The notes under the pieces were generated by a model. The model saw only the letters and a program-made list of their open reading frames with translations. It was not told where the DNA came from and did no database searches. A stretch of 63,976 nucleotides of DNA, the filler included, from Sphacelaria rigidula (taxonomy: Eukaryota): assembly GCA_964200075.2 (NCBI GenBank). It is 3 parts of 3 records of this genome, joined end to end, with 100 filler letters (N's around TTAATTAATTAA, not from the genome) between each part and the next. Parts side by side here need not be neighbours in the genome. Positions count along the whole stretch, not along the records: positions 21,462 to 42,818 come from CAXNAA020000430.1; 2 more parts are not named here. One strand, given 5' to 3'. Within the stretch, counting starts at the first letter, position 1. Each line of letters begins with the position of its first letter. The position numbers were made by a program, and so were the translations under genes. This document shows positions 21,362 through 46,012 of this stretch, in pieces.

Positions 21362-21461
21362 NNNNNNNNNNNNNNNNNNNNNNNNNNNNNNNNNNNNNNN
21401 NNNNNTTAATTAATTAANNNNNNNNNNNNNNNNNNNNNNNNNNNNNNNNNNNNNNNNNNNN
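21362..21461. other. Artificial contig-join spacer (assembly gap)
   Basis: 44 N + TTAATTAATTAA (stop codons in all six frames) + 44 N, exactly 100 bp. Confidence 0.97.
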
Positions 21462-23368
21462 ACCAATATACCGCGCAGATATCGGAACGGTTTTTAATGT
21501 GAAGACAACAACAACAACAATGTAGCAGGGCAGTGTGCGTATCATGGGTGCAGAAGGTTTTCTGCGGTTCTCTTCTGACCGACCGGATGGATCCTTCGCA
21601 TCTCACTGGTTTGCTCGAACGGTTCGTCAGGAATCATCCAGGACATTTCTTGGAAAAAAACTCGAAAAAAGTTCCGTTTATATACATAAGTTTGGGGCCC
21701 CACTAGCAACTGTAACAGTCGCGTGCATCGCAGAGCGTACATGGCAGAGCACGCGGGGTAGCTACGTTGACAAAGATAAGAATATTTTGTACCTTCACAG
21801 AGAACGCATCGGACTGCAACAGTATTAGGAGAACGCCGTGCAACCGATATCGACATAAGAAATCAAGAAATAATCCGAAAACACATCAGCTCCCCTCCCA
21901 AAACAGTGACACCACGCACCCTACGACAGGCACCAGGAGGTGGTTCCAAAAACAAAGGGCGGTTTTCACCACCTTTCCCCGACGACGTTACACCGATATT
22001 CGTTTGCCACAGGAATTAACCGGGCATACAATAACTCATGACCAAAACCGATGCACATCTCTTCTTGTCCTAAATGGATGGTGCAATGAACATTACCTAC
22101 ACAATACCCTCCACCAGGCGCAACATCAACCAGCGCGGCATTCGCCACGCGCTCTCATGCCCCCCCTTCCCACCCGACAAACCACTGAGGCATGTTATCG
22201 TCATATCTACTCCCCGTGCCTCCGAGCACCACACGATTGGCTTTCCCGCTCAACTGGCGTCCCATGCCCCACTCCCTACTCTCCCCCTACCTTGGACCCA
22301 TCCTCTCACTCCCCTCTTCTTTCTACCTTCGGTGTACCATCTCATCTCACGTATAGGTATGGCAACGGTGTAGTACGAGGGCAACGGCACGGGCTGGTGC
22401 AAGTAACGTACAACTATTGAAGCACCAACCACCCTCACGAACCCACGACACGAAAACTTGACCGAACAGCGGCAACATACAAAACTAAACCAAACTAAAC
22501 TAAACGTTCTAAAGTGATGCAGACAGTAGCATGCCACGACTACCACCACCTGTCTCCGACACTTAACTATCGGATCGTGCCGTTTCTATCTTCCGGTTCG
22601 TCCTCGAATAGTAGACCCCGCCTAGCACCCTGCCACAAAACAGACGTTGCTCATACGGGCGGCGAACCCAGGATAAAAAAACATTCACCGAACGGCTGTA
22701 ATCTGTGAAGAAAACAAATACCGTGCGTGCTCGAGCACTGCAACTCGTACCATGCAATCATCATAACCTGCCGCCGACACTTTGGACCGTACTGTTTCCA
22801 TCTTCTATCCAATCCTAAGCATCGCGTCTCGCCCAACCTCCCGCCACATCACAAACGTTGTTCACGTGTGTGGCAAACACAGGACCGGCAAACTTCACCG
22901 AAGACCTACCACTTACAAAAAAATACCAAGTGTACTCGAGTATTGTCGGCAGTAGCACGCTACAGCTATCATCACCTGCATCCGACACTTGACCATCGGA
23001 GCACGTCTTTTCATCTCCCGGCTCATTCTTGAGGGCTACACCTCGTGGAACCCCCCGCGACATCACAGACCTTGCCATTGCGTGCGGCAACACCAGTATT
23101 CCGCTGCGCGTCACGGCATTCGACCGCGCGTCACAATGCGAGTCAAAGTATCCCATACCGGTAGATACTATTTACAGCCCCCCGTCCGTTACTTTCGGTT
23201 GAGATACGTGGTCCAGTTTAGCTCTTGGCAACGCCCCCGTCCCTGCCCATACCCTTCGCCTCTAATTCATTACTTTCAAGTTGGGTTATGGATCCACCTG
23301 CACGCCGTGGCCGATTTGGTCACCACAATTCACCCACGCGCTGTCGCACGCGCGCTCTCTCCACTACC

Positions 23369-26300
23369 TCAAATGCAGACCGGCCCGTCCTCGTCAGAGG
23401 TTCCGTCACCTTCACGTCGAGAGGTATCCTCCGAAGTAACACCCAAACGCCCCCCTGTGTGACTAGGTGCTATGCCGCCACTGCTGCCTGCCCTGATCTC
23501 CCAACCCTCCATCACACCACCCGAATCTGCGCCACGGTGGTCGTGGGTGCCAGTCCCGCCCTCACCACCGCTGCCACCCATCCAGAATGAGTCGCTCATG
23601 AACTCCAAAGATGCCGGAGGATCGCGAGCGGCGCTCCCGCCTTCACTACCACCAAAGTTGTGGCCGCCGCTGGCAGAGACGTCGAGTCCGTACCCCATAA
23701 TCGAGTCCAGGCCCATGGTAGATTGGGCGGCGACAGACCCATGGCCGCTCACAACGGCGTCATCCATCGTCGCGGCTCCTCGGCCGATCGCGAGTTCTGT
23801 GTGTGAACCCAACTGCCCGCGTGACACCTCCGGAAATAGTCCCAGAGGAATCCCTTTCTGCGGCGGTGCACGTTCCGAGTAACTGGTCTCATCCCCATAT
23901 TCCATATCCCCCCCCGCTGCTGAGCCCCTTTGTTGACCCAAGCCATCCCCCCCCCCAAACTGCGGCCCCCACTCGGTGCCACCTGACCCGGACACCGGTG
24001 GCACGGCCGCCGCCATCCCCTTCGACTCGTTCGTTCCGCCGCCCCGGGACAGACGCGCACACGCTGCCGCCGCCGCCGCCGAAGGTTGGCGCTGCTGCGG
24101 TTGAGCTGATTGCAGTGGGTGGGGCGCGATGATACCGTCCTTCGTGCTACCGTTAGCGTTGATGCCGTACTGGGTGTCTGCATAACCAGTTGCCTGTGAC
24201 TGCATAGTTCCGCGACATGGTACCGCCTGCCAACCAGTCCACTCGCTAGTCCACCGCAGGGCAGAACTCCGAATATTCGCGTCCGGATTTGCACCCGACA
24301 GACCTGCCTCGCCCCCGCCGGCGCCGAGTCTGGTGGTGTGGGGCATCCCCAAAAATCCAGTAACAGCGTCCACCCCGCCGTGCGCGGTAGTAGCAGATGG
24401 CGCAAATGTCGGGGCAGGCGCAAAGTCTCTAATCGAAGCAGCGTTTGCAGTGGCGCGTGCGGCCTCAGCGGCGGTAGCCTCTCTCTTGGTTTTCGTCTCA
24501 GAAGGGCCCTGGCATCGCCGGAGCTTCCTGCGTGGTGCGGTGCTACCTTTGCTCTCTGTTGCCGCCGCCGCCGCCACTGTTGCCGCCGCCACTGCCGCCG
24601 CCGCCGCTACCGCCACCGCCGCCGCCGCCGCTGCCTCCGCCTCCGCTACCGTTGCCGGAGGTGATATTTTCGATAACGTGTCGACCTTAGCCGAGATAAG
24701 TGCTGCTGATGCCGAAACACCGCCCGCCGTCGTCGAGTCGTTTCCACAAGTGTCATCCATTTCGTCCACCTTCATCAGCTGCGCCCGCGGGCGCTTCTTC
24801 GTAGCCAATCCGGGGCCCTCTACCCGTACTGCTTCGTCAGCCACCACCTCTCCAGCTGCCGTCGCCGCAGACGGTTGTTTCTCCGCCTCCTTCTCCATTC
24901 TCGTGGAGGCGGGAGTTGCGGCACCCATAGCGAGCGCCTCACGGGATGTTCTCTGTTGTGACAGCTTCGACACGGCCGATCGCTTCTCTTGAGCTTCGCG
25001 ATCCATCGCGCTCGCCTTCGCCTTCGTCTTCGCCCTCGCCACCAGCTCGACCTGCCTCTTGACTCGTTTCTTGCTCGGCGCCTCCGATGATTCCTGCGGC
25101 ACGTCATGTGTCCCCGACGGAGCAGGCGGTAGTTCCGGGGTTGAGCGCTTCACGGGGCGGCCCATAGGGCGGGAACGCGCCGATCCACCGCCCTCCACTA
25201 CAATTGCGGCCACAACGCCCTGCTGCTTGATAGTGGGCTTCGGCAGTAGTCTCCGGAGCGGCCCTTGAGATCGTGTAGAGCTCCGGACTCCCGCGCGTGA
25301 CGGTGGAGCTGATTCCACTGTGCGGGCCAAAGACGATCCTGATGCCGATCCCGACGGGCCAGAAGGGACGGCCGGTGGCTTACCCTCATCGCAGACAGCG
25401 CTGCTGCCGCTCCCTCTCGCACTGTCCTTCACGCTGCCTTTCTTCCTTCCTGGTTTGGCCTTGCCTCCCTTCGCCGGCCTGCCACGCCTCACGCCTCCAG
25501 CTTTAGCTCCTGGACGCCCCACTTTGGCTTTGCCGACGACACCGCCATTCCCTTTCGTCTTTGGACTTACCCCCTTGGGCTTGGTGTCAGGGTAGGAGCC
25601 GCTGCTGTGCATCAGCAAGGTGTTTTTACCTGCAGCCGGGGCCTTATCCTTTCCTGTCGCCTTGGCCTTTCGAACAGTCTCGCGCCCCCTCGCATGCGCC
25701 GCCGCCCCAGTTTTGGGGCAAGCACCAGCGACGGGAGGATCTTTGCCACAGTCAGCCATCCACGACGGTCTGCCCAGCGCATCGCTAACGCTTCGCACCA
25801 ACCCCTCCAGCTCCGCTGTTTTTGGTTTCAGACCAGGAAAACCAGCGGCAAAGCAGGAAACGAGAGGGATGGCGAGGATATGGGGAGTTCAAGAGTCGTA
25901 TCTGGGAAGGAAGGAAAATCGAAATAACAATGAAGAGATCGTACTAACATGCCTCATACAAGTTGGTTCAGGGTGGACGACCGAAATTTACTCCCCAGCG
26001 ATTTCTTACGCTGTTTCTTCTTGTTAGAGCCTGAACGTTTTCACACAGGTGCTCTGGGATATTAAGGGACTCTGTATGAAAGTGTTTTTTTCTACAGGTA
26101 TCCGAGGACCCAGAAGGCGGTTTGTTCTGAACACGCACCGCCTTCTGGGACCCCGAATATCTGGCGGGAAACGAAAAACTCCCATACAGGGTTTCTAGGT
26201 ATCCCAGAGCACTTGTGTGTGCAAAACTTCAGGTTGTAACTTGAAAAACCGGCGAGAAGTCGTTCGTATGTGCGTTGAAGTACACAAATGTACGCGGAAG

Positions 26301-29300: not shown

Positions 29301-32300
29301 TGTCAAAAGGGAAACAGACAATTTTACCAGCTGAGGCCTCTAAAAAATTACCAAGTGGTCAAGGAGGTGAGGAGACTTCAACAACCAGGAGGTTTGCTTA
29401 GGAGCGGCAGTCCATTGAGGAGTATCAAATAGCGCACTTGTCTCGTAATCCAGCGCCAAAAATGGACGGGACTAAGTAATTTGCCGGAGTTGTGAGATAG
29501 TATCACTAGTTTTACATTTCTATCATGCAACGCATCATTTCAAACGGTGAATAAAATTATTTCAACTTACTTCAGTATTTCCATGTAGTTACACAGTCAA
29601 TACATCTAGAGAATTATAGTAGATCTAAGAAAGTACAAGAAGTTTATTTTATCGGTAGGGGAGCAATCTGTCACCGAGTGGAGCGTTAGGTGAGCAGGCG
29701 TGGACGAAACAGGTATGCATCATTTTCCGAGTTTTGGTTCACAATTTACTCTCACCGATGAAGTTATCCTTGATGCGAAGACAAACCCTGTGAAAATAAT
29801 TTTCTCGATGGAATTTTCCAACTTGAACACAATTTTATCAAGAATTGAAGTACATGATTATTCTACTGTGAAAGAACATATTCGGAGATTTTGATCATCA
29901 AATCAAACTGGGGTTGTAGAAGCGTACACACGCTACATCAAGATCAATGATAAAATAGTCGCAACCGCACAAAGCATTTGATTCTTTGACTGCGAACGGT
30001 GGTCCATTTGTGAATGAGCACCACTTCTGCTCCAAGAAGGAATGAAAATGTTGCCGATTCACAAGTAGATTGCCGGTCGCAGTGAAAGAGACTAACAGGC
30101 TCCTGTAACAAACGAAATGATACAAAAATGGAATAAGCATCTTTTTTTAGACATCACTAGATCGAACGATGTAAAAAAATATGATACGAGCTAGTTGACG
30201 CTCATCAGTAAGATTCCACTCATCCGCAAATGTTTACACCGATTCTTGCAGACTCCGAGGATTTGCTCACATGTAATGTACTGTGGAGCATCACGAAACT
30301 TCCAATTGATGGGATTTTTCATTCTTTGTCAGATGATGGGGGTCCCAGGGTTTGTTTGTTTGTTTTTGGGGGGGGGTCTAATTCTTTTCTTTGGGGTGCG
30401 GGGAGCGGTTGGGAAGATCACGTGCCCTTCTGGCACCCCCGATTACTGGCGAAACAATCACAGGGAGACCCCGTTCATGGAATGTTTCGTAATGTTTTAT
30501 AGTATGTGTGCAACGTTTCAGAGTCTTTTTTGTGGGATAAAGCGAGCTTGAAAGGTACTAACTTCGAACTACTTCATAATAATAGTGAAATGTATTTCGA
30601 GGTGGAACGGTCACTCGCTTCATTTTTCTATGCTAGTCAGCACGACGCCATATATGCGGCTATTGCGTAGGTATTACCAGAAGGCATCCGACGATTAGTG
30701 AACTTGGGGTGATGAGCGTGGATCAGCTCGTGGATGCAATTACACTAAAAATTGCAGTATTCACCATTCTAGAAAATGCCACGCTTAAATTTGCACTCCA
30801 CTGTATTCCATATTTGTTTCTCAAGTGCGTCAGTAAACTCATAAACTGAGACTATTCCAATAATTTTTTCCTTGTTTTCCTTCTAAAAAACAATCTTTTT
30901 CCAACACAACTTGTAGAGTTTTCCAAGAAAAGCTACTAATTATTTTTTCCCCTGTTGACACCATGGACAAGTGTACCGTACAGGACACACTAGCCCATCC
31001 TGACAAGATTTTACTAAAATGAGTTGTTTACCCTGCTCGTGAACGAACGATCGATCATCGGCCCAGCACTATACGGGTGGTATATACAATATCGGGACCA
31101 TTACGGTAGTGTCGCCGAGACAGACCGGGTTACATCGATTACCGCGGAACACAAGCAATCATGTCAAAAGGCACGGGCGAAGACAGCGCACAGACCCCCG
31201 AAAATGGGTCGCCATCACGAAGGAGAACATCAATGAGCGGCAGTTCTCTCAATATCACCACGTTCCTGGTACGAAACAGGGATCATATCGCGATGTTACC
31301 GTGTGATATACCTTGCGTATCGAAGCGGAAGCGCCGCTGAAACTCTTCGTGGCAATCGCAAGCGCCTGCGACACACATATGACACTCAGGACATGTCAGG
31401 TTACCGCAGCATCTGGGCCGCGTCTTCACCTTGTTCAGGCATGCCGATGCCCTTTGCTGGCGCTGCTTCTTGTTCTTCACCCTGCACACGAAAAGGCGGA
31501 CGGACGGTGAAAGATTAATGCGTGTGATCGATCAAATCAGCGCAATCAAGAGCATCGCTCTCGTCGTTTCTCGTGCTTTGGGCGCCCGTCATCGAAATCA
31601 ACACCTCTGTCATGATCATTCCCACCACCATCACCATCTCCATCATCCTTACACCACTGGTGACGATACTCGTGTGGTTTTATATAAGTCGCAAAATTTA
31701 CAACGCAAACCTTCCTGGGCAATGATCTCGCATGTGCAACGTTGAGCATCGGATCATAACAAACACGTTCACCACTCCGCAGTCCGTAAGAAATCGTTGC
31801 ATGAATTATTCAACGGTCTCCCTCATATCTTCAAAAAAACGGAAACCATCCATCCGGTCGACTCTACTTTTGGAATTCCGACGCCTTAATCCGACCGAAT
31901 TGGTTTTGATGCACCAGCTTTTATCACCGGCCTGCCGCGGCAATGGCCACAGTACGCTCAATTTGCTCGCCTCGGTGTGGTGTGCACGCCGATCTGGTGC
32001 ACTGTGAGCCCCGGCCGACAACAATTGAAAACAACACAACGCAGGCTGAATTACAGGCCAAGAAAGAAATGCAGACGGGCACTGCAAATGAAGAATGCGT
32101 GGGCTCACAACACACGACTGCTCTTCGACCAGATTGTAAGCCACAGCACGTCACCAGCATATTTGTATCCTATGCCGCGCGTACACCATCAAGAGAGGCA
32201 GCGCGGGTGCCAGATACGCTGCGTCGTGCATACATACCACAACGTCAATAAATACCGTTCACAGCGCATTGCTCCACGGTAAAATCGCCCGCTGCTCCAG

Positions 32301-35300
32301 GCACTCCACGCCATTTCAAAAACGTGTCATGCACACAAATGTTGGACTCATGCAAAGCTACTCACGGATCGCAGGGGAAGTGCCCTTCGTTGGTCAATCC
32401 CACCGATCCCTTTTCGGGTTTCGAGAACGCCAGCTTTCCCTTCGAGTAACACACCAGACACACATTCACGTCTTTGCCTTGCAGCGTCTCGCACCCGTTG
32501 CAGTGCATGTACCCGCTCCACAGTTCACCGCTGCGATACGTCACGTCAACAAACGAAAATGAAGATGTATGCACAAGATGAGGGTAAAACACCCATGCGC
32601 ATACAGACCACACGGTCATCCTGCGACCACAACCACCGAAGCAGAGGCCAACAACAGGCTCTTCAAAGGTGGCACTCTCACTTACTATGCAGTATGCTAA
32701 ACGACGAGATACGGATATAGACGGACGGACACGATCACCGAAAAATAATCGCGGATCACACTTTCCGAAGTACAGGGAGAGAGAAAGATGGCATATCATT
32801 GAAGAATCAATAGTCACACATAACCAAAGATTCTTCAACTGTAAACACGTCACACACACGAGAGCGGAACAAAATACATCCACAATTAGATACTTCCTCT
32901 GTCCCGCAAGGAAACCAGGTTACGTCTACACAGGCCCTTAACCGTGGCAGACGCATGGTTTGTTCATCATTCTGAGATCTTGGGGAGTGTTTTTCGTCGA
33001 ATTTATTCATTGATTTTCGTGAGTGAATCCACCCCTCAAGGTGGCCAAACGGCCTGGAAAGAATAGAGCGGCCCGAAAATGGCCGTTTTTTCGCCACTAC
33101 AGATGGCGCCATCACTCAAAGACTCCGCACGTACAAGAACGTGAACCTTTAAAAGTATATATATATATAAAAATATCGGGAACAGTTGCTCAGTCCGATG
33201 GTACTAATGAGAACAAGCACCCGCAAATGAGGTGTACAACTGCAGCTACTCGTACAAATAAGGACGCGGTTCAAAGACGCGGCGGCGGTTACATCATTGT
33301 CCGCAAATAACCTGCAGCTAGGGGAGAGCCCTAACGCCTAACGTGACCCCTCGTGGATCAAGAAGGTTGGGGATTGCTCCATAGTACCGTGCTAATCTTG
33401 GCCTTGCAGCGCATTATTGATGGTCGGTGTTTCAATCGTGCAGGTAAACTTATCTCTCAAGAATGGCAACGGAAGCTCATGTCGCGTTTGATACGGGAGG
33501 ATCTGTGGCCTTCTGAGGTTTATGGGTGAGGTGCAGTACAGGGCACTCAGTGGGTGAAGTACAGTACAGGACACCCAATAAGCAACAGGCCAATGAGAAA
33601 GCCAGACTGAGGTTTGCTGCAAATTAAAACGGTTCAAGGCTAGCCTTCCCTGCAAGATGAGACCCGTCAACCCCCTACGGCGAAGCCCGGACCCTTAGAT
33701 CAGTCACCCTGTCACATGCTCCTGGCCGTCGCCGTGACCGAAGCATAAAACATTGCTGCTATTCGGCGAACGTTTATTTTTTCCGCTGCCCTGTCGGCGT
33801 ACGATGCGATTTTTTTGGGAAATGTGTATTTTTGCCGTTTCAGAATTCTCAACTTCTTACGGCAAAAAATGAGGTGGTTTCACCCCAGTCGGCCTCCCGA
33901 ATTACCCATGGTTGACATGTCTGAAAAAACGCTAACCTTCACCCAACCCCCAACCCAACGCACACCAAGAACTCTCGAGCAAGGGTGCCGTAGGCAAAAT
34001 ATGCGTTGGCAAACCTCAAATTAGCGCCAGCGGCGTCGCCGATTTGGACAAAAATGCGTTCTGTACACACGAAGAGGACTCGCGACGATCAGCCCCACGA
34101 AAGATCCGAATATTGGTGTTTACACTCAAATCAAGTGGTATCAACCATGGATCATTTGGAGGCGAACCGGGGTAGACTCATCGAAAGATATTTTTTCGAA
34201 GGAAACTCTGGTAACGCTCGGTCACTTCAGAGAAGGCACAGTGGGTGTGCAGGACTTGACGTAGAAGAGTCAATTATAGAAGGCGAAAAACGTACGCATG
34301 CACCCCCATTGACGTCGTGCAGCCAACACAGGCCTTTTCACGCTCATCACCGACATACATCCACACAACAACTCGCGCCGGTTTCTGGAGTAAGACTCTG
34401 AAACTTGCATGTACCTTGGGTCACGAAAGAACTTTCAACGAACGGGGATTTTCTCTTGTCTTATATTGTGCCGAATGTCGAGGGTCTCAGAGCCGTAGCG
34501 TATTTTCGGGGATAACATGCCCTTTAAGGACCCCCGATAACCGGTCAAATAACATAATTCGAATAAAAAAAACGTCCATTTAAATTTCGACGTGACTCGT
34601 ATTTAATAAGATGTGTGCCGGGTCCAAGTCCTACGCCAAAACCCGGCATGAGGTTTTGCGCAGGAGTGCACAGAGGTGTTCTGTGGCCTCACAAACTCCC
34701 AACAAGTTGATTTTAGTAACGCCTTTTTCGGGTATATTTGACGTGAAGACGAGAAAAACCGCACCAACTTTTCGAGCGACGCAACAAAACGTTGTACAAA
34801 TGTTCCTTGACCGACCCCGGGACGCCTACATTCCCCTTGTTTTTTCTCCTCTGCGGCATTCTGTACCGACTTCAGCACGTTTGCACATGGGGACCCCCGG
34901 AAGCCGCTTGAGAGCGAAGGAAGAAAATTTTCAACAGTACACTTTGCCATTCGGAGGACTAGTACCTACCAAACTCTTGCCAAGTGTGAGGGCGGTCGGA
35001 GCTTGTCCACGACAGATATAAGGGAAACTGTCAGGAGGCTCTATGGGTCTGAGGTTCACATCAGTGGAAATTCGACGACGCCGAAACCCCACATCACCCA
35101 AATGCCGCGGTTTGGGGGTATATTTCGATCTCATAGAGACTATTCTCGAATCGTTTTTCTCCGTTCGATTCCCCAGTTGATGGCGGTTACTACGATATGG
35201 AGCATGAGAAGATTGGCTGAAAATTCGGCTAAAAATTTATGATACAAATTTCATGACAATTTGGAGGGCACTGATTGGTCAAGACATATTTTCGCCCTTA

Positions 35301-38300
35301 GCGCCACCGCTTTAGTCGTAAACAATAGTCCGACTATGTCACGTTGTTCATTTTTCGATGGCCCTTGCACGATAAGATGTATGCGACTATTTGGTAGGTA
35401 TCGTGGAAGGCACGAATCGATCGCCTCGGTGGCTCAGTTGGTAGCTTCGAGATCTTCTGACAGTTGGGACGTGGGTTCGAATCTCGGAGCGATCTGGGAT
35501 TTTCTCTCACGCAATACCCAACAGTGGAGAGCGACTATACCGTGGGAACATAAAAGTCGACTTCACGGTTGACGAGGGAAAGAGACTGCTGAACCTCTCT
35601 CGCAGACGTAAATTGGAGGACTAGAGCAAATAGTGAGAAAAAAAAAAACGTGTTGACCTCCCCCCTGTGTGACCCCGGCTGGTGCGCCTACATACACCGA
35701 ACGGTGTATACCGGCGTCCAGAATACATGGGGAGACAGCAACGACAAACAACATTTGCTGCTTGGTAGATATTGGGTAATAAGCGTGAACCAGCCTGAGG
35801 CGCACTTATGCCCTTGACCGCGAGGGTAGGTCATCTGGGCCATGCACGAACTTTCCGAGTGAAATGGCTGCCTATTCAATAGATGACCTATGCTGGCGGT
35901 CAAAAGGGTTAATGAGAAAATGATGAACACATCGGCTTGATTCATGTTCGGCAAAATAAGAATGAGCCAACAGTAAGAAAGAGGCTTACCGAACGGAAAA
36001 AATAACAAACTCAGCCTGGACTTGAATATTCTCTTAAGCGGTGTCATATACTGTACTCGTGGGGTTTTCGCTGCTGTGAAAAGTAAATGCTAGTGCAACA
36101 AAATTGTACGCAAATCTCGGGAATAAGAGCGTTGTCCTGAATGAGGCACTCCATGTAGAAATAAGAACATGCACCCCGCGAATTTAGCGGCAAGTATCTG
36201 GTCGAGGAAGACCCAGGCAAAGGGGGCTCGATTTGGGGCGGCCAATAACCCGCAAGCCTCGTGCGAATAAGTGGTTCTTACGTGGTGGCGTAAATTGTAT
36301 TCCAGGGGCAGAAAAGAGTAACACGGGGGAAAGTCGCAGGGGGCTCGGCGTGCGAAGGTATCAAACTCCTGGGGTTTTCCCCACAAGTTCTCAAACACGC
36401 TCTGCCAAAAATTATGGAGAAAAAATAATAATTGAGAATAATTGAACCCAAACGGTCTTATGAACATCTACAATAAATACATCTCGTTTCTTCTGTTTCT
36501 TCTTCGAGGATATCTAACCCCAATAAAATCAACTTCAGCATCCCTAACCCCGTGCTTGAGGGGGATACGATCAGGCCCACGCAACTTAGTCTACTAACGG
36601 GACAGAGGAAGTATCGTACACAACCGATACACCAGAGTGACAGCGAAATATCAAGGACGTACCCACAGCTGGTGCACGCGAAGCCTTCTTCACCAAAAGG
36701 ATCAATTGCGCGCTCGTGAGGCGGCACCCAGGCATCCACCACGGCCGACCTATCCTTGCTGTCATACACTGCCGACAAATGAATTGACGGAGAAGAGGGA
36801 GAAGAGTGAAAAGAGTGAGAAGAGAGAGGGGGAGGGGGGGGGGGGGGGGATCTGATGTGAGCAGGTTTCGAACTGCTTAATTGATAGATTGTCGCACACA
36901 AACTGACCCCCGAGGGATACAGGCGAGGTCAAGATAGGCGTACCCAAGATGAGCATAACGAAAAACACTCGACCAAGAAAACTCGAGAGGGGGAAAGAAA
37001 AGAACAAGGTTAAATAAACTGGAGAGAGCTGAACGAAAACGGAGCAGAAGAAGATTAAGAGAAAGTGGAAAGGTACGGGAGGAAGGATGGATAACTGACC
37101 CCGATAAAGAAAGATGACGAAGAAAATGACACAAGGGAGGAAAAAAAATTGTAAGCAAGGAACGAACAATCGCTGACCCTGTAGCACGGCTCCCGGCAAA
37201 AAGGCCGTACAACAATTAAAAAAAATTGGGCACCATGTGTAAACTATAGCTCGGAAACATGAGGGAGAGGGGAGAGGACCGGGATCGACGGGCCCCGTGC
37301 TATGTCCGAGACCCGAAAGATGTAGAAGTAGAAATACAACTTAAACCGTACGCTTGAGCGATCCAAGGGATGTTTAATGCAGTCACTGCCCTCCGTTTTA
37401 AAAACGAAATGTCTCGAACTCGAACCAACAAATAATGAGCAAGGAAGCGCACACAGAGCACGTATCGCCTTTAGGCAGTATTTCCAACCCAATGAGAACG
37501 CGACTTGCGCAATAGTCAAGACAACCTTCGAGCGTTTCTTGGGCAACAACTTCAAGACGTGCTCACAACTAACCCATGACGAAGGGACACGATATCTCTG
37601 CACACACAACTTGGTCTGAACAATGGAATAGAGGAGGCGGAGGGGAGGAGGTTCGATTAACGCCCAACTATCCGTGATTCACAACACAGTCCAAGAAGTG
37701 GCAACAGAGTCTGGAAGCGCCTGCTGCCGCACCTTAGCAAGAGGTATGTAGTGAATTAACAATGCTCCTAGAGTTTCAAGAAATTAATGTTGCCACCAGT
37801 AAATGTCCACGCGTTTTTTCTTCACGTTTTCGCCGTTGGAATTCGTATATCTTCAGCGTCAGATCCTCTGTGAGGTGGCGCCCACACTTCTACATGGTCA
37901 AGCGTCAGACCATCTTCTCGGCGACGAATAAGCGTCTATATTCTCCGAAACAGTCGGCGCCCGTCAAAATCAAGTTAGCGGCACGCCGCCGATCACCCGG
38001 TTATCTCTTCGGGGTGCGCGCCGAAATGTCCCAACATCGGCGACGCGCCGATCTGCCGACGCCACCATATTCTGTGGATGCAACCATCGAACATGGAGTA
38101 TGATAATGTAGCAGAAAGTACCCACCAGCAACGACTCCGTACAGTGCATGACTTGCCCGCAAATGGTGGTGTACCCACGGCAACTATGTTCCTACCGCAG
38201 AAACTTGCCGGTCACCCCGGTGGCTCAGTTGGTAACCTCAAAACCCTCTGACGGTTGGGTCGTGGGTTTGAACCTCGGTGCAGTCACATGATTTGGGATT

Positions 38301-41300
38301 TTTCTTCCGCAACGCCCAACAGTGGAGAGCGACTACGCCGTGAGTGAAGAAAATTCGATTTCACGGTCGACGAGGGAAGGGGACTGCTGAAACCCTCTCG
38401 CGATGAAAAATAAGGAAAGAACCGAAAGAGGAAGGTGGAGTACTAAAACAAAAACAAGAAAACTTATGTGATGGCCTTCCTCCTGTGTGACTCTGCTGAT
38501 GCGCCCACGAATACCGAAAGGTGTAGACTGGCGTCTGCAATAGATGGGATGACAAAAGACGCACACAGAAACACCCATGATGACTTTGCTGAGTCAAAAT
38601 ATTATTTCCCTACTCGTACCTACATCTGGCGATACACACACCGATCCAGGGCACAGCGCTATCTCCGCGGTGAATCTTGAGCTCACGGCAAATCGTGCAC
38701 CCTGTAAGACCGATACATGAATCCTGCTGACATTGTGATTCAGGAAGACATCGAGTACATGACGGTGCAATCGCATTTCTTGGGTTCTCATTTTCTTGGT
38801 CACCTTTGTCGAACGTCACTGTCGGATGCACAGGTTGCTTCAAATTCGTGCTTCCAGCAACGAAGGGCCGTGCGTTGATAAACTCCAGCCGCGTCTTCGA
38901 TTTTGTCTTAGCCGCTCTCACCTGTGGCGTACACGGTACGAACAAAACAAATGAAGCGAACGGCAAATCAAAATAATGTGGAACACAACACTGATGCCAA
39001 ACAGCGGTGCAACAAAACTGATGGAAACATGCCCACATTTTGGAGGAGTTATGAGGCGTAATCGCGTGGATGTTGATGGAATATATGACGCGATTGAAGA
39101 ACGCTGAAAATCAGAAAGGCCGAATACACACACAAACAGAACATCGAAAACAGAGGTGGTGGTGGAGATAAAATGACGTACCGCAGAGGCTATCTCCCGC
39201 TTTTGCTTTTTAACCATCTCCTGCAGCAGAGGCGCTAGCGCCACCAGAAGCTCATGCCCCTCCACCCCTGCCACCCGCCATCTGCTCGGGGGTGGCGGTG
39301 GCGGTGGCCGCGGCCGCGGCCGAGGTCCCAGGTTCACCAAAAGGGCGGCGGCTGATGCAAAGCTCTTCATCGCTGTGGTCGCGAAACGTGAGAACGTTCG
39401 TTCGGGAGCGCCCGTGAGAGAAATTGACGCCGACGCCGATGAAGTCTCCTCCTCCCGCAATCTCTGCAACTCGGCGAACGCCGTCTGCACTTGAGATGCC
39501 AGTTCCATCACTGCTATGCGTCCCTCCTCTAGTCGCCCAGCTGCGCCGTTTTCCGACTGCGAGTTTGCCGCCGCCGGGGTGCCTCGGGCAAAACTGGACT
39601 CCGCCCTGTCACTGCTGCCGTCACCGCCGCCACCACCGCCACCATTCACGCTGTCGACGGCGGGAGCGACGTCAGCAGAAGCTCGGATTCCACCGTGATA
39701 TGACGATGACGAAGGCGATGAACCCTCGGTGGTGGCCCCGTTGATCGCAGTCCGAATCCAGCAACCGAGCCCACTGCCGTTGCCGCTGCTTTGGGCCGTC
39801 CACCCTCTTCTTCCCTCCGCCTTCCCGGCCGACGCCGAACCCTTTACGTTCCTCAACACCTCCGACGCACCAGAAGAGACACCGTCAGTCGCAAATGCAG
39901 TGGCCGGTGCACGCGCCGAACGTGCGGTAGGCTGCGCAACCGGCAGCAACACCGGCTGCGGCAACACCTGTGGCGACTCTGCATCCCTCCCCGCAACGCC
40001 AGCCGCAAAACCCACCGTGCGTGCAGTCCCATTGGTCTCGTGATTCGAGTCTGAACCGGCAACCGCGTGGCGTCCGTTGGCAAAGGCGGTAGAAGCGGCA
40101 TCGTTACTTCGCATGAACCCTGTAGATACCACCGTAGGCGCCATGCTCGTCTCCCTCTGGGTCGGTGTGGTAGAAGCGAGTGCAGCTGAAAGCCCCGGAA
40201 GGTCAGGTTGCGGCTGGGATAGCGGCGGCGGCGCGGCAGCCGTCGCCGTCGCCGGTGGTGGTGGTTGAGATGGTGGTGGTGCAGCCCGGGTAGCACGAAC
40301 TTGAGCGAGTGCCGCCCTGGCCGCCTGGAATAGTGGAACAAACCCACCACCGTGCCATGACGGCAAGATACGGACAAAGTACGAGAAACAAAAATAGTTA
40401 CATAAATGGGTGGTGGATGATTCATGTTCAAAGCGTTCCTCTGTTTGAGTGGGTTGGTACCGTACCCCATCACCCGAAAACGGTGGTTTGCACAGCTGCC
40501 GTCTAGTAGCCGAGAGTCCAGTGTTGCGGTTATACTTTCAAGCACGAAACACGTCGCTGTGGCATTGCTAATGGTGGCAAAGCCCCGGTGGATTGTTTTC
40601 AACTTCAAGATTCGAAAGTGGGCACAACACGGGCATCCCGTCGCATTCTTTCTTGACAGCAAGGAAACTGTGGGAATCACCAAGGCACCGGAGGGGGCCT
40701 CCCACAACAGGTGTGTGTGCGTGGGAGGAAGGGGTCCACCAAACTGCCGCCCGAAAACAGGGACATCTGAAAAGGGTACCTGAAATGACCTCGAAATATC
40801 CATCCATCCTCACGTGAAATACCGCTGCCTTGACGCTTTTTTTGGCGGGAATTCACATACGAGAGTGTTTGGTTGTACATTATACCACACCATTCCCTTG
40901 TTTCGGGCCACGTACACTCTCTCTCTCGATCCAGCGTGTGATGGCCCCGGAGAAAAAAGCATGACAAAAATTGATCCTTGTACGATAAAATCACCACTTG
41001 CAGACGTATGCGTGTGGTCACTATGAAAGTTACCCCCCCCCACACACACACTCCTGCTCTCTTCATTCCCATCACCCTCAACACTCATCGCCATACCTGA
41101 ATCAGACAGGTCTTCGTGGGAGCCAGGCCCATCGCACCCATTGCGTGATTGTCCTTGGTACACTCAAGAGCGTATGCCATCTCCCGCCGACACCCTGCCT
41201 CCGTCACTCCCATGAAAATCCAGTCCCAGGCGACTGACACGCAGATCGACGCAGGATCTTCCTGCAAGATTATTTTGGCGACGTACACGTGTACAATAGT

Positions 41301-42327
41301 TTGGTCAAGACGCAATTGTTTTTGAGGACACAATAAAAGTCATCATCGGGGGAACTAAAACATTACTCGGTTTTCCTGCTCCCAGTTAGCCAAGAAGCGA
41401 TCACAAAAGCGCCGGGGATCCGAGAACTCAAATCGGGCACCAAATCGCCATGAAGAAAGGCTGGACTCCCCAGACTTGTGTAGACGCAGATCTGCTGCCA
41501 TTAAAGTCGGTCCGGTTGTGCTTAGCCCCCCTTTTGGCAGCAACAGAGGGGCAGCAGACTCTTGGCTTTGGTCGTCTGATTCTACGACATGCATCGACGT
41601 ATTCGGCTCGCTTCGCTTCCAGAGTTGCACACAAGGTATGCAGAATATCTCGCCAAAAAGACACAGCCCTTCGTCGACACTTTTTATACCAGCGAGAATT
41701 TCCCCCCCTTGTTTGCGCTTTTACCTGTGCTTCATGCATTTCACCCACGCCTGCTCTTCCGTAAATAATAGGCAAGGTCTCGATTTTTTTAATTTAATAA
41801 TGGAGCCGGCGGAGCACGTCCATATTAACAACGGTTGTACCTTGCGTAATGCGTGCAGGCGACCTTCATTGATGTGGACATACTCCCCCGGCTCCAGTGT
41901 AAAAGCTTGGGGCGGCAAAACAAAACAAAAGGAAAGAGAGGGGGCAGCTGTGTCAACGTGGAAACGATTCTTTTCGAGCCATGGGGCCAAAGGTATCCTG
42001 GATGTGGTGATTTCAAGCCGTAACGACTCGTCCCACATTTGGATACTTTTCAATACATCCTTCGAATCAACAAAAAATCTCGCCCATCGGTCACGATAAT
42101 AATCTGCGCCAACACTAGCACAAACACACGTTTTCATTGCAAGGGAGAACGTGTAACGGGGCAATGCATCAACCAATCCATCATCGCAAAATCGACACCA
42201 GAGACTCCGTTGATTCGTCACGTACCCCTGGCAACGGTTGTGCCTTGCGGAAAGCGTGGAGGCGCCCTTTGTTGATGTGAACGTATTCTCCCGGCTCGAG
42301 GGTGAATACGCTGGGGGCGTAGTTCAT
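23369..42327 (-). CDS. JmjC-domain protein (putative histone lysine demethylase, KDM6/UTX-like C-terminal architecture) with Cys-rich Zn domain and long low-complexity tail; 5'-partial
   Basis: Exons on the minus strand, GT-AG with closing phases: 42327-42226, 41261-41097, 40324-39182, 38921-38804, 36768-36663, 32530-32366, 31481-31312, 25815-23369 (TGA); 4416 nt, about 1471 aa. A further small exon near 31910-32001 is possible. Peptides: FTLEPGEYVHINKGRLHAFRK and ICVSVAWDW (last JmjC strands with the distal Fe-binding His); FACTSCGGELWSGYMHCNGC...VCLVCY and CCGNLTCPECHMCVAGACDCHEEF (Zn-binding). The N-terminal JmjC half with the HxD/E motif is not seen and probably lies in or beyond the 42819 gap. 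Confidence 0.85.
26024..26239. mobile_element. Palindromic MITE with TTA/TAA flanks (PIF/Harbinger-like)
   Basis: TTA-GAGCCTGAACGTTTTCACACAGGTGCTCTGGGATA ... TATCCCAGAGCACTTGTGTGTGCAAAACTTCAGGTTG-TAA; inner arms CCCAGAAGGCGGT / ACCGCCTTCTGGG. Confidence 0.75.
35418..35755 (+). mobile_element. tRNA-derived SINE, family 1
   Basis: A box GGTGGCTCAGTTGG and B box GGTTCGAATCT, with the same core and tail as the 53835 copy. Confidence 0.85.
38208..38575 (+). mobile_element. tRNA-derived SINE, family 1
   Basis: Head CCGGTCACCCCGGTGGCTCAGTTGG, with the same core and tail as the other copies. Confidence 0.85.
41841..41905 (-). pseudogene. Diverged duplicate of the JmjC catalytic-His exon (alternative exon or pseudo-exon)
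   Basis: Reads AFTLEPGEYVHINEGRLHALRK versus FTLEPGEYVHINKGRLHAFRK in exon 42327-42226. It has a polypyrimidine tract plus caag acceptor (phase 1) and an AAG|gtacaa donor. Confidence 0.7.
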
Positions 42328-42818
42328 CTACAGGAGAACACGCGTGGGCGAATCGCATCAAGCACAGGGAGAAGCACAAACGAATCCACGCACAGAGTGA
42401 TTAGAAAAGGGGACGGAAAACGAACCGAAACAAATGGTGGAGAGAGGGTAGAGTAGTGCGTGAGACCCTACTAGCTCATAGCAAAAAAAAGCAAGAGAGG
42501 GCCACCGTCTGAACGTAAAAGACGATCCAAAAACAAAAACACTTGAAAAAGTATACGAAGTGTACAAGGAGAAACAAAAGAAGACGGCGAGTGGGGCAAC
42601 ACACACATACACACCACCATTATAGCAAAAACGGGAAGAGAGGCAATAAACCGGTGGAAAAGGGAAAAGGTGAAGGGAGAAGGGGAAAAAATACGAAGGA
42701 AAAGACAGCGAAAAACAAAAGGGAGGGGGGGGGAGAAGTAGGAATCAACAAAAAAAAAAAACCGGGGGGGGGGGCGGTGCGTTAGGGGGCGGGGAAAAAA
42801 GACAGGAGGGAAGCGGCG

Positions 42819-42918
42819 NNNNNNNNNNNNNNNNNNNNNNNNNNNNNNNNNNNNNNNNNNNNTTAATTAATTAANNNNNNNNNNNNNNNNNNNNNNNNNN
42901 NNNNNNNNNNNNNNNNNN
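42819..42918. other. Artificial contig-join spacer (assembly gap)
   Basis: Identical 44 N + TTAATTAATTAA + 44 N construct. Confidence 0.97.
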
Positions 42919-44136
42919 AAGACAGATATGCCACTTCAGCCCCATATTTTGTTTGAACCCCAAAATATAAAATCGGCTGTTATTAGGAGCGTTCATGTGT
43001 CCCCCTGGTTGTTCCAAGGGGGAGAGAGACAACTTCTATGAGCAGAGACACTATAGTCTATGGCAGAAGGGTTTAGAGATCGTGCCCTGCAAGCAGTCGT
43101 CTTTCTCTTGCCTTCGGGCCCGAAAATATTAATGAAAAAAGCAATTCGAAAGAAAAGCAATAAACGGATGGTTTTCTTGGAAAGCAGTCGTGCATTGTAA
43201 CGAGTATAAACCGTTCAAGCAAGGAAATTTCGATTTTGAACAGGGAAACATGTACTACGATACCCCTGAATACTTTTCCAAAGGTTTCATTCCGAGCGAC
43301 GTTCCACAAATACCCCAACAGTTAGGTACGGACACCTAAAATCCCCCAAAAACGGTTTTTCACCAAGGTCCCTGATATTTCGGTTATCGAAATCGAAATT
43401 TTCATGGCGTGTAGTAGTCAATACCTACCAGAAAGTGAAGACATGGAAGCATGCTTCGAAGAGTTGGTGTGGATACGAAGATTTGAACTCTCCGGGTTTT
43501 AATCCCGAATGAAACATTCATCACCAATTTGTAAAATACCGTGTTGAAGCCTTTGGCACCGGAGACGACACCAGCTCCCTCGTGCAACAGTCAGCGGGCT
43601 GACAACCAACGGAAACCAGACTAACCAAAAAGCGTGAGGCTGCGACGCACGGCGCGGCAGCGCCATGTCGAGGTAACAACAGGGCAACATGGATAGCGAC
43701 GTCGTTCGCAGAACAAGCATGGTGGGTAGTCCCCGATGGCGGCCACCCCCGCTCATCATGTGCGAGACACTGAGCTCAACAAGCCACCACTAAAATCTTT
43801 GCAACACTTTTGTTCACTTTGTGCTTGCTGTGGGTTCATCAATGTGGCACTGAGTGATCCCCGCTGTGGCAAGAGCATCGTGCAGAACGCTTGTTACTTC
43901 AGCCCGGGATAGGCTGGCTTTCGCCTTCCAGCAGTATCTTGCGCCGAGAAAGATCTTAGACCACCAGCAGATTCGGTCTTGGCAGGGTGGTAGTATATCC
44001 CATCCACACAGAAGTAGATACCGCTCACCGCAGTGGCCCCGCCAGGGTGGGTCTCATCAGCATAGGGAAGTCGGCAATCTAAACATGTGCCGGGACAGAT
44101 TCTGATTAATCAAGTTAGCGGACGAAATCCGTATCA

Positions 44137-44576
44137 AACACGGGACCTTACAAATTGGGGATGGATCATTTACTGGGGATGAGAAACCCGGAGAATTAAA
44201 ATCTTCGTATCCACATCAAATCTTCGAAATATGTTTCTATTTTTTCACCTACTGATTACTACTGACAACTGCTATATGCCATACAACTTTGGATTTCGAT
44301 CACCGAAATTATGGGGTCCTAGGTCAAAAAACGATTTCGGAACCATTTTGGCGTTCGGACACCCAGAATTCCCCAAAATTGGTTTTTCACGTATGACCCC
44401 AACATTTCGGTGATCGAAATCCAAATCTGGATGGCGTAAAGCAGTGGTCAATAGCCATCAGTAGGTGAAAAAATGGAAACATATTTCGAAGATTTGGTGT
44501 GGATACGAAGATTTTAGTTCTCCGGGTTTCTCATCCCCAATAAATGATCCATCCTCAATTTGTAAGATCCCGTGTT
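44137..44576. mobile_element. Foldback element, ~200-bp arms, 4-bp TSD (ATCA)
   Basis: ATCA|AACACGGGACCTTACAAATTG ... CAATTTGTAAGATCCCGTGTT|ATCA. An older right-arm copy lies at ~43340-43546. Confidence 0.85.
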
Positions 44577-46012
44577 ATCACAAGTCAGATCTCCCACACA
44601 CAAATAAGGTGACCCAATGTGAATTAAAAGAAGCGTGACTATGGCCAAGCGTTCAAAATCGGCACTCGCCCAAAATTTAGGACCCGTCCAAAATTAGGCG
44701 GATGGCGAAAACATGGAACATGTCCTGTTTCACTGTACCGCAGGAAAACACAAACTCACACCTTCTCTCATGTATTCGAAGCTTTAACGGTCTTTACTCT
44801 GGTGTGTTGACGCACTGCGAAGACGAATGGATTGCATGAGCTGCGATATTGTCGTTGTGTTCGTCTCCCCAGAAACAACGCTACTCTGCACGCAGTGCTG
44901 GCTGCACACTGTTGAAAACTTCATCATGTGTTGGCTGGTTCGTCTTTCGTACAACGAACAAGGCGCTGTCCGCTGCTGCGACACTCCTGCTGGTGTTGTA
45001 CGTTGGGGCCGTGTGCTGTACTGTACTGCAACACGTTTTTTGTGAGTGCGGGCGTCATTAGCCGTGAGATTCGACCGCACGAACACTAGATTTAGACTAC
45101 TCCCCTGGCGATTCCCAAGCAAAATGGGGCGATCTGATTGGTAATTACCAAGCAAATATGTCCCGCTCCAAATGCAATTCACCGGGAAATAAGATTAGAC
45201 CAGTCAATCCAATCAGGGCAGGGGACAGTTTACAATCTCCCACGGTACGTTGTGCCAACCAGGACACACCCCACAAGTTAGGGCCCACCGGCATGGGTGA
45301 AACATGTCAGTTTGGTCAGTTCTGTCCGACCGGGGAGCCAGAATACCTGTTCCTACATGCTTTTTCCTCACCATTACTGGCCACATCACCTTGCCCCTCT
45401 CCGATATCAAACCAGCTAGGTTCCCTCCAGGCACGGGGCCGATGTACCCCCTCCCACGGTACGTTTTGCCCACCAATATCTGTCTCACTAGCCTGGGTCC
45501 CATCAGTATGGGGAAAACACGTCAGACCAGCCTGTTGCACTCTGGGTAGGGGGGCAGTATACCCTCTTTCGCAGCATATTCGACCCGCCACCATGAGAAA
45601 AATACGGCACACGAAAGTCACAGTGCGTTATGCTGGTGCAGTCGCCTTAACCTGATTAAAACAGACGGGGCCTCGCGAGCGTATCACAAGTGCAAGCCAG
45701 AGCATAACACGGGCAGATCGCAAGCCGGTACACAGTTTTACGGGCTGGCGGTGTCACACACTCTTTGTGATAAAGAGATAGTCGCCGACTCGGGAAGAAA
45801 ACCAATCGACACAAGGGTACACGGAAAGAGGTCATGTGCTGTACAAACTAGCACATACTGTCATCATCCTCGCAACCAAAAGCGAAGGACTGGTCCTATG
45901 TTCTCCACCACGTGTGCCAGAAAGAAAATGAAAGTTCAATCGAGGACCACAGCACTACACACGACACGAGGGAGAAAACCAGAACGAATTTACGACCAAA
46001 AATGGATTGACT

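Follow-up and report, generated by a model that had tools for sequence, protein, structure and literature searches.

KDM6 enzymes (UTX/KDM6A, UTY and JMJD3/KDM6B) are H3K27me2/3 demethylases, and the outline of such a protein in the genome of Sphacelaria rigidula (GenBank assembly GCA_964200075.2) raises the question of whether the gene is a KDM6 at all and, if so, on what it could act. An earlier note on this DNA had proposed a KDM6-like JmjC architecture in a lineage reported to lack both PRC2 and H3K27me3. For the model brown alga Ectocarpus that premise agrees with passages of the published account (PMC7784034), which report no H3K27me3, no PRC2 and, in their stead, broad H3K79me2 domains. 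The window considered here is the whole stretch of DNA that was analysed (63,976 nt).

Gene structure and expression

The peptides quoted in the earlier note are genuine: the minus strand codes for each of them, exactly at the coordinates given or close by, and their exons are united in spliced RNA contigs of all three RNA-like runs (X6, X7 and X8); the exon-exon joints are absent from the single DNA run (X1). Once cut ambiguities were resolved, all six introns between the seven exons running from 42226-42327 to 31312-31481 were found to be GT..AG, and the joined frame of 656 codons is open (Table 1). The length given for the low-complexity exon was exact (381 codons, 1143 nt); RNA pieces span it at 39180-40323 with no other letters, a Pfam scan gave no family above noise, and its end is a helical segment that aligns to the pre-zinc helix of homologues. 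The exon set itself was incomplete, a 118-nt exon having been overlooked, whose joints (36768->38804 and 38919->39180) are present in X6, X7 and X8 but not in X1; it determines in which frame the following exon is read, and leaving it out closes the joined reading frame. Likewise, the exon ending in ...RFRFDTQ is 170 nt long and not only a short Cys stretch, and the AELEGLV continuation falls outside the range 31312-42327 first assigned to the gene, lying at 25815 and downward. There, an ORF of 815 codons reaches a stop codon at about 23371, and the predicted C-terminal tail contains four GRP (AT-hook-like) motifs. The junction to 25815 is a prediction based on splice consensus, homologue alignment and the extra letters of the RNA contigs, which run 1831-1863 letters further past 31312.

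At the other end, RNA contig pieces from X7 and X8 span the His exon at 42225-42329, and X6, X7 and X8 all show the joint 41260->42225. The gene is cut off there by an artificial contig spacer, and about 1.4 kb of 5' mRNA lies outside the window. A second, identical spacer occurs at 21362-21461. A tblastn search with all homologues found no 5' catalytic exon with HxD anywhere in the window, the proximal HxD/E ligands of the gene being out of view because the 5' exons lie beyond it. At least 1471 codons are within the window, making up the 3' two-thirds of a nuclear minus-strand gene that is expressed and spliced.

An intron of this gene also harbours a duplicated His exon, which has diverged from the first copy (81% identity over 75 nt) and lies 403 nt downstream of it. 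Twelve of the 14 differences are at third codon positions, the invariant Lys is changed, and the joint 41260->42225 leaves the duplicate out in all three RNA contigs.

Table 1. Features of the locus, in positions along the window
Feature	Position	Strand	Evidence or remark
Artificial contig spacer, 44 N + TTAATTAATTAA + 44 N	42819..42918	.	cuts off the gene's 5' side
Exon, distal Fe(II)-ligand His motif (..FTLEPGEYVHINKGRLHAFRKAQPLPG)	42226..42327	-	gene's first exon within the window
Diverged duplicate His exon (FTLEPGEYVHINEGRLHALRKVQPL)	41829..41914	-	intronic; local alignment and repeat finder agree
Exon, last JmjC strands (..ICVSVAWDW..) and first post-JmjC helix	41097..41261	-	RNA joints on both sides
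Exon, 381 codons, mostly low-complexity (Ala/Gly/Ser/Pro)	39182..40324	-	RNA pieces
118-nt exon (VRAAKTKSK...TFDK)	38804..38921	-	RNA joints
Exon ending ..DPFGEEGFACTSCG, start of ZZ-like zinc module	36663..36768	-	RNA joints; tblastn with homologues, E 1.6e-4
Exon GELWSGYMHCNGCETLQGKDVNVCLVCYSKGK..., remainder of ZZ-like cross-brace	32366..32530	-	RNA joints; tblastn, E 6.6e-7
Exon, second Cys cluster (..CPECHMCVAGACDCH) and start of closing helix (EEFQRRFRFDTQ)	31312..31481	-	RNA pieces 31312-31480
Predicted last exon, AELEGLV.. and low-complexity tail of ~800 codons	23369..25815	-	ORF, acceptor, homologue alignment

The diatom and brown-algal family

When the 55-aa exon at 41097-41261 was used as a query against 1.84 billion proteins, 58 matches were obtained at E ≤ 0.001, of which two were repeat proteins judged false and 56 are credible. 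The window protein, spliced in silico, matched 55 retrieved proteins by phmmer (E down to 3e-35), a sequence match to the family that is well beyond chance. Members come from diatoms (Ditylum, Nitzschia, Seminavis, Pseudo-nitzschia, Thalassiosira, Skeletonema and others), where paralogues are many, and from brown algae (Cladosiphon and Choristocarpus), whose clade has one copy. Closest to the window protein is Cladosiphon okamuranus g9742.t1 (EukProt), with 68% identity over 100 residues of the JmjC C-terminal part and 33% in the C-terminal module. It has in common with the window gene a ..QPLPGEDP.. linker, a long disordered insertion and the Cys module, and to judge from these sequences is probably its orthologue. 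The two differ at one near-invariant Cys of the last cluster, which is Gly in the window gene (the RNA contigs agree), a change that may affect one zinc site. A tree clusters the window sequence with Cladosiphon, Choristocarpus and a further member, P0002 (support 99/91), and over 136 columns it lies outside the other three (98/84), which points either to a separate lineage or to a copy that evolves fast. Since the family search retrieved no Ectocarpus orthologue, the link between the window and the PRC2-less lineage is plausible only.

All 32 aligned full-domain members have the distal His as well as the His and Asp of HxD, the family motif being H-Q/E-D with its Asp constant in 32 of 32, and HxD is kept in the Cladosiphon protein. 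Within its part, the window protein retains all 13 invariant positions, 11 of the 15 near-invariant ones and, when the C-terminal part is aligned, 27 of 34; the His exon at 42226-42327 keeps six of six family-invariant residues. Those visible include the distal His together with the adjacent Lys and Arg, in a motif (H-A-F-R-K) whose F, R and K are invariant or near-invariant across the family.

Pfam JmjC (PF02373) had no match in 10 members at E ≤ 0.01; the same model, KDM6_C-hel and KDM6_GATAL were unlisted for four long members at E ≤ 1 and absent among the 25 of 55 matched Pfam families listed for 32 members at E ≤ 10. The Cladosiphon orthologue matched no Pfam family at E ≤ 1, and two family profiles matched no solved JmjC chain by sequence at E ≤ 10. 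Some members carry the UniRef name 'JmjC domain-containing' despite the silence of Pfam JmjC. Among the same 25 of 55 matched families listed for the 32 members, Myb was found in six, HMG box in four, Tudor_5 in two, and Tudor_3, PTM_DIR17_Tudor, CXXC, PHD and BED in one each, while TPR, zf-4CXXC_R1, JmjN, ARID and zf-C5HC2 were found in none. The Cys/His spacing of the zinc module is ZZ-like by eye, and ZZ_ADA2 appeared in 15 of the 32 members, where even the best match (E 1.2e-4) stayed under the 27.5-bit cut-off; the window exon at 32366-32530 gave a weak, sub-threshold match (E 0.028). The second Cys cluster, in exon 31312-31481, aligns with that of the family.

Fold of a homologue and its place among JmjC demethylases

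Evidence on the fold comes from homologues 33-45% identical to the window protein, rather than from a model of the window protein itself. The AlphaFold2 model of a compact homologue (P0015, residues 1-642; pLDDT 90.8, pTM 0.90) displays a predicted double-stranded beta-helix of JmjC type. In each of three structure searches, the best 50 matches listed are all JmjC/2OG oxygenases or their modules, and JmjC demethylases are the best matches to this model (Z 15-23 in VIA-align and a wide search). Look-alikes in the ESM Atlas are likewise all JmjC clusters, among which clades are not separated (a Basidiomycota JmjC cluster at 0.95, a UTY-like one at 0.90 and one with JmjC, zf-4CXXC_R1 and ZZ at 0.90).

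Taken whole, the model resembles KDM6 most. The earlier note had proposed an AlphaFold and Foldseek comparison, which was made with P0015: KDM6 occupies Foldseek ranks 1-28 (E 5e-17 to 9e-15; next family 1e-12). In VIA-align, UTY, UTX and JMJD3 reach Z 22-23 with an rmsd of 3.3-3.6 over 385-401 of ~440 residues (top match Z 23.1, rmsd 3.4, 397 aligned), at 12-16% identity. These alignments cover model residues 1-620 and, as some 390-400 of the ~440 KDM6 residues align, the helical and zinc parts are covered. KDM6 also came first (Z 20.8) in the wide search without Foldseek pre-selection. Full fragments of JMJ14 and KDM5 score 5-6 units lower against the whole model (Z 16.7-17.9, rmsd 4.1-4.5).

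However, the parts rank differently. For the JmjC core alone, KDM3B (Z 19.7) is tied with JMJD3 (18.6), and in the wide search with KDM6 (18.4 vs 18.6); for KDM3B and JMJD1C, the core alignments span 249-262 residues at Z 18.6-19.7. The C-terminal helical and zinc module on its own fits JMJ14 (Z 12.8, rmsd 2.8, 165 aligned), KDM5A (11.7), KDM5B (9.9) and JMJ13 (8.2) better than KDM6B (6.9, rmsd 5.1), and its top Foldseek rows are JMJ14 and KDM5 (E 1e-3 to 6e-3). The KDM6-like architecture that had been claimed is thus supported in part, by the JmjC fold, the presence of a C-terminal helical/zinc module and the best whole match; the core favours neither KDM6 nor KDM3B, and a KDM6-like C-terminus shows in the whole-model alignment but not in the module by itself. 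The family probably consists of real JmjC-fold Fe(II)/2-oxoglutarate oxygenases that form a distinct stramenopile clade, nearest to KDM6 in architecture yet better regarded as a clade of its own than as a KDM6 orthologue. The domain of the window gene, seen through its modelled homologue, looks most like a member of this little-known stramenopile JmjC family, KDM6-like in overall shape.

PRC2 is present in diatoms, and the family could be a true, highly diverged KDM6 orthologue, an ancestral H3K27me2/3 demethylase that diatoms kept and that has another substrate in PRC2-less brown algae; we regard this as unlikely. It would fit the first place of KDM6 chains as whole-model match in all three structure searches, the order of parts common to both (JmjC, helices, zinc module, closing helix) and the situation in Ectocarpus (PMC7784034, in the passages cited above). 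The sequence traits of KDM6 are split: passages of Iyer et al. (2010; PMC2938197) give as such an HxxxN motif that has lost its Asn, as is the case in the distal His motif of the family, and HxE in strand 2, whereas the family has HxD. The same passages do not list KDM6 in stramenopiles. The core tie with KDM3B and the preference of the C-terminal module for JMJ14/KDM5A also weigh against orthology, as do the absence of KDM6_C-hel, KDM6_GATAL and TPR among the Pfam families listed. Moreover, the zinc module is a larger, multi-zinc assembly (a ZZ-like cross-brace and a Cys cluster) instead of the C2C2 treble clef (GATA-like) of KDM6, and the linker of the window gene, unlike that of KDM6, holds the 381-codon insertion.

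KDM3/JMJD1 enzymes are of HxD type and ZZ-associated, and those of the KDM4/5/JMJ14 group have a helical and C5HC2 zinc module; descent from one or the other, with convergence on a KDM6-like overall look, is slightly more doubtful still. The family shares HxD with KDM3B and JMJD1C, whose core fit equals that of JMJD3, ZZ fingers are fused to Hairless/JMJD1 in passages of Iyer et al. (PMC2938197), and an Atlas cluster combines ZZ with JmjC and zf-4CXXC_R1. However, the ZZ-like finger of the family sits C-terminally and not N-terminally as in KDM3/JMJD1, and solved KDM3 fragments cover only model residues 1-382, leaving the post-JmjC helical and zinc module without counterpart. This module is closest to that of KDM5 and JMJ14/JMJ13 (JmjN-JmjC-helical-C5HC2), but JmjN, ARID and zf-C5HC2, like the zf-4CXXC_R1 mentioned above, are absent among the Pfam families listed, PHD occurs in one of 32 members, and JMJ14/KDM5 fall behind KDM6 on the whole model. 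The missing HxxxN Asn and the lack of any sequence-level match of the two family profiles to either group argue in the same direction.

That the window protein is no active demethylase, but serves as scaffold or reader or hydroxylates some target other than histones, is the least probable reading of all, for although its proximal ligands fall outside the window, one near-invariant Cys has become Gly, its disordered insertions are very long and hydroxylases are numerous among JmjC proteins (general knowledge, and passages of Iyer et al., PMC2938197), every window-visible invariant residue is kept, distal His, Lys and Arg included, the nearest orthologue retains HxD and the RNA contigs show transcription with correct splicing.

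A possible chromatin enzyme in stramenopiles

The window gene probably encodes a large chromatin-type protein whose enzyme part comes from this family of JmjC-fold oxygenases. In the family, a double-stranded beta-helix core with an HxD...H triad is followed by a helical linker and a multi-zinc module, in which a ZZ-like cross-brace is combined with a CxC-rich cluster and a closing helix packs back; in the window gene, the linker accommodates the disordered insertion of 381 codons, and a predicted tail of ~800 codons with AT-hook-like motifs completes the protein. We infer for the family a catalytic activity, demethylase chemistry and a role in chromatin: methyl groups would be oxidatively removed from a histone lysine or from a lysine in some other protein of chromatin, and targeting might be achieved by the zinc module and lineage-specific reader domains.

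A bolder proposal, which we hold to be improbable, is that the family is an unrecognised stramenopile counterpart of KDM6 missed by Pfam catalogues, serving as the H3K27 demethylase of diatoms and re-tasked in PRC2-less brown algae. Were it so, brown-algal targets might include H3K27me1/2 laid down by another enzyme, H3K79 or H4K20 methylation, or non-histone proteins, and the duplicate His exon might give a regulated, catalytically dead isoform.

Catalogues of diatom and brown-algal histone demethylases have been built largely on Pfam or BLAST matches. Passages of Maumus et al. (2011; PMC3145265), which cover Ectocarpus and two diatoms, record no enzyme of KDM6 type for any of them. The family is likely to be a blind spot in these catalogues, because the Pfam JmjC model misses it; the brown-algal clade has one copy, and diatoms have numerous paralogues in which Myb, HMG, Tudor, CXXC and PHD modules are fused to it. 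Compact diatom members model at high confidence and should therefore be tractable targets for biochemistry and, if active, the family would represent another eraser in lineages with unusual chromatin marks.

Gene structure and expression

The gene under study lies on the minus strand of the middle contig, its 5' side running into one of the two identical 100-bp artificial spacers in the window (44 N, TTAATTAATTAA and 44 N). These spacers show the window to be a string of three contigs, and neighbourhood cannot be assumed across them. Three runs (X6, X7 and X8), none of them recorded as RNA, were taken to be RNA by guess and spliced contigs were then found in them, parts without coverage being given no reading. 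Each run yielded one long contig (5253, 3236 and 5195 letters, respectively), from which six stretches of the region are absent; the DNA run X1 (depth ~25-30) is continuous across all six. The introns so defined are GT..AG in all six cases, and joining the exons leaves an open frame of 656 codons. The peptides and the 381-codon exon described in the earlier note are therefore right and its observation is confirmed, with corrections, since its exon set overlooked the 118-nt exon, whose omission puts the next exon out of frame.

Features of the gene under study and spacers of the window
Feature	Position	Strand	Basis or remark
Exon (His exon)	42226-42327	-	RNA contig joints, cut ambiguities resolved
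Exon	41097-41261	-	RNA contig joints, cut ambiguities resolved
Exon	39182-40324	-	RNA contig joints, cut ambiguities resolved; 381 codons
Exon	38804-38921	-	RNA contig joints, cut ambiguities resolved; 118 nt
Exon	36663-36768	-	RNA contig joints, cut ambiguities resolved
Exon	32366-32530	-	RNA contig joints, cut ambiguities resolved
Exon	31312-31481	-	RNA contig joints, cut ambiguities resolved
Predicted last exon	25815 to ~23371	-	AELEGLV continuation, opens 815-codon ORF
Diverged His-exon copy	41829-41914	-	75-88 nt; intronic, 403 nt downstream of His exon, 81% identity
Spacer	21362-21461		Identical to other spacer
Spacer	42819-42918		Identical to other spacer; adjoins 5' side of gene

The junction from 31312 to the AELEGLV exon, which lies outside the stretch compared with the RNA contigs, is predicted from splice consensus, homologue alignment and the 1831-1863 further letters of these contigs. 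The GC maximum of the window (0.56-0.63, at 22001-26000) coincides with this long low-complexity exon. At the other end, the RNA contigs hold 1383-1419 letters upstream of 42329 that have no place on 30000-42818. The orthologue in Cladosiphon okamuranus has 421 residues ahead of the point equivalent to the window's first exon, so that the absent 5' exons would be expected to encode the entire N-terminal half of the enzyme domain. A tblastn search of the whole window with all fetched homologues returned only the known exons and a duplicate of the His exon, which carries the distal Fe(II)-ligand His, and inspection by eye of minus-strand ORFs in 42919-50000 found no 5' exon.

Third codon positions hold 12 of the 14 differences between this duplicate and the His exon (P = 8e-5 under equal positions), and the differing codons comprise 11 synonymous and 3 non-synonymous changes. 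This pattern suggests that both copies were once under coding constraint. Of the three replacements, however, two alter residues that never vary in the family, the Lys and the Phe. A role as a mutually exclusive alternative exon was rejected for now, since neither of the two candidate acceptors found is in phase with the exon in use and the copy is left out of all three RNA contigs.

Elsewhere in the introns, high-copy repeats occupy 35136-35991 and 38132-38559, with DNA word depths of up to ~29,800 and ~110,100 versus ~25-30 in the flanks; their abundance extends to the RNA-like runs. The third contig carries a CSC1/OSCA-type channel exon at 52450-52611 (-) (Pfam RSN1_7TM, E 6.6e-12) and two minus-strand ORFs, 49362-49688 and 63759-63974, with a similar peptide in common (..KPG-V/I-LRPGFVG..RG..W..), which may represent a repeated element and had no match in a Pfam scan.

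A family shared by diatoms and brown algae

Single exons revealed little of the family: Pfam returned only sub-threshold Cupin_2 and ZZ_ADA2 for the seven exon ORFs, phmmer found no JmjC at E <= 10 among solved chains for three of them, and a word-index search with the 55-residue exon (41097-41261) gave no match among proteins of 98-2000 aa. With the same exon, exhaustive phmmer retrieved 58 proteins at E <= 0.001, two of which were discounted as repeat proteins. When the spliced window protein was compared with the fetched proteins, 55 matched, with E down to 3e-35, in two separate modules. Named members come from the diatoms Ditylum, Nitzschia, Seminavis, Pseudo-nitzschia, Thalassiosira, Skeletonema, Chaetoceros, Amphora and Epithemia, and from the brown algae Cladosiphon okamuranus (g9742.t1) and Choristocarpus tenellus (a fragment). 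The Cladosiphon protein is 68% identical to the window protein across 100 residues and has the linker and Cys module in common with it; it was the only named brown-algal or Ectocarpus orthologue of 877-2793 aa among the matches listed, which is not proof of absence. In a tree built on 136 columns, the window sequence, Cladosiphon, Choristocarpus and the homologue P0002 form one clade (support 99/91), in which the window sequence falls outside the other three (98/84), and a separate clade of 37 rows includes all named diatom sequences (99/95). This placement makes a brown alga, or a close relative of one, the probable source of the window.

Three residues are the same in all 32 full-domain members: in an H-Q/E-D motif the His and the Asp, and in ..H-I-N-K-G-R-L-H-A-F-R-K.. 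the distal His. Within its part of the domain, the window protein keeps 13/13 invariant and 11/15 near-invariant positions, as well as 27 of 34 in the C-terminal alignment. One near-invariant Cys, in the ..CPECHMCVAGACDCH cluster of 31312-31481 (-), is Gly in the window protein; the RNA contigs have no other letter there, and Cladosiphon has Cys.

Relationship to KDM6

The earlier note had seen in this gene a KDM6/UTX-like demethylase, an interpretation that is partly supported. According to the accessible text of Iyer et al. (2010; PMC2938197), KDM6 is characterized by HxE, loss of the Asn of HxxxN, a strand-1 Lys and a C2C2 treble-clef C-terminal domain, and is tabulated for animals, choanoflagellates, fungi and ciliates, not for stramenopiles. 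The family likewise lacks the Asn but, unlike KDM6 as described there, has HxD; its C-terminal module is a larger ZZ-like unit with a Cys cluster. Scans of 10 members at E <= 0.01 and of four long members at E <= 1 listed neither Pfam JmjC nor the two KDM6 C-terminal models, and all three were absent from the best 25 of 55 families for 32 members at E <= 10; ZZ_ADA2 was found below threshold in 15 of the 32. At E <= 10, two family profiles matched no JmjC chain among the sequences of solved chains; what they returned was low-complexity noise and one weak match, to the ZZ of RSC8. Judged by sequence, the family stands alone.

In modelled structure, its JmjC character is clear. The compact homologue P0015, modelled with AlphaFold2 (residues 1-642; pLDDT 90.8, pTM 0.90), retrieved KDM6 chains (UTY, JMJD3 and UTX) as Foldseek rows 1-28 (E 5e-17 to 9e-15), followed by JMJ13/14 (~1e-12) and KDM5 (~1e-11 to 1e-10). 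VIA-align gave Z scores of 23.1 for UTY (rmsd 3.4, 397 aligned), 22.8 for UTX and 22.4 for JMJD3, and a search independent of Foldseek gave 20.8 for KDM6B, 18.6 for the JMJD3 core, 18.4 for JMJD1B, 17.8 for JMJ14 and 17.3 for DPY-21. ESM Atlas look-alikes were JmjC clusters throughout, which did not tell the clades apart. In the core alone, KDM3B (Z 19.7, 262 aligned) and a core-only JMJD3 chain (Z 18.6, 246 aligned) were tied under VIA-align's own rule. The post-JmjC module, folded on its own from the whole homologue P0037 (pLDDT 84.3), best matched JMJ14 (Z 12.8, rmsd 2.8, 165 aligned), followed by KDM5A (Z 11.7), KDM5B (Z 9.9) and JMJ13 (Z 8.2), with only Z 6.9 and rmsd 5.1 for KDM6B; for this module by itself, nothing in Foldseek reached E <= 0.001. 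As modelled, the module points away from KDM6. We read the family as a distinct clade among the JmjC enzymes, on their histone-demethylase branch, with an overall architecture nearest to that of KDM6.

Proposed chromatin function and the loss of PRC2

Among the Pfam families listed for 32 members, accessory domains include Myb (in six), HMG box (in four), Tudor-type, CXXC, PHD and BED, which point to chromatin; the tail of the window protein has four GRP motifs. The gene product is a putative Fe(II)/2OG-dependent methyl-lysine demethylase that would act on chromatin. Ectocarpus is described, in the accessible text of PMC7784034, as being without PRC1, PRC2 and H3K27me3, PRC2 having been lost after the split from pelagophytes, and diatoms are shown with polycomb components in the legend to its Figure 8. 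Since the family occurs both in diatoms and in the brown-algal clade, its retention after PRC2 loss is compatible with the earlier note's idea of a KDM6-like enzyme that may act on a different substrate, but nothing ties the family to H3K27.

In the accessible text of Maumus et al. (2011; PMC3145265), no KDM6-type enzyme is listed for two diatoms or Ectocarpus, and 'JMJ-CHROMO' and 'JMJ-MBT' proteins are listed with target unknown. No description of a KDM6-like family in stramenopiles was found in the titles and abstracts of the literature searched, and the main text of bioRxiv 10.1101/2021.11.30.470311, as far as accessible, makes no mention of KDM6, UTX or JmjC. No Pfam family reaches E <= 1 in the Cladosiphon orthologue (P0085, 1596 aa), which histone-demethylase catalogues built on domain matches would overlook.
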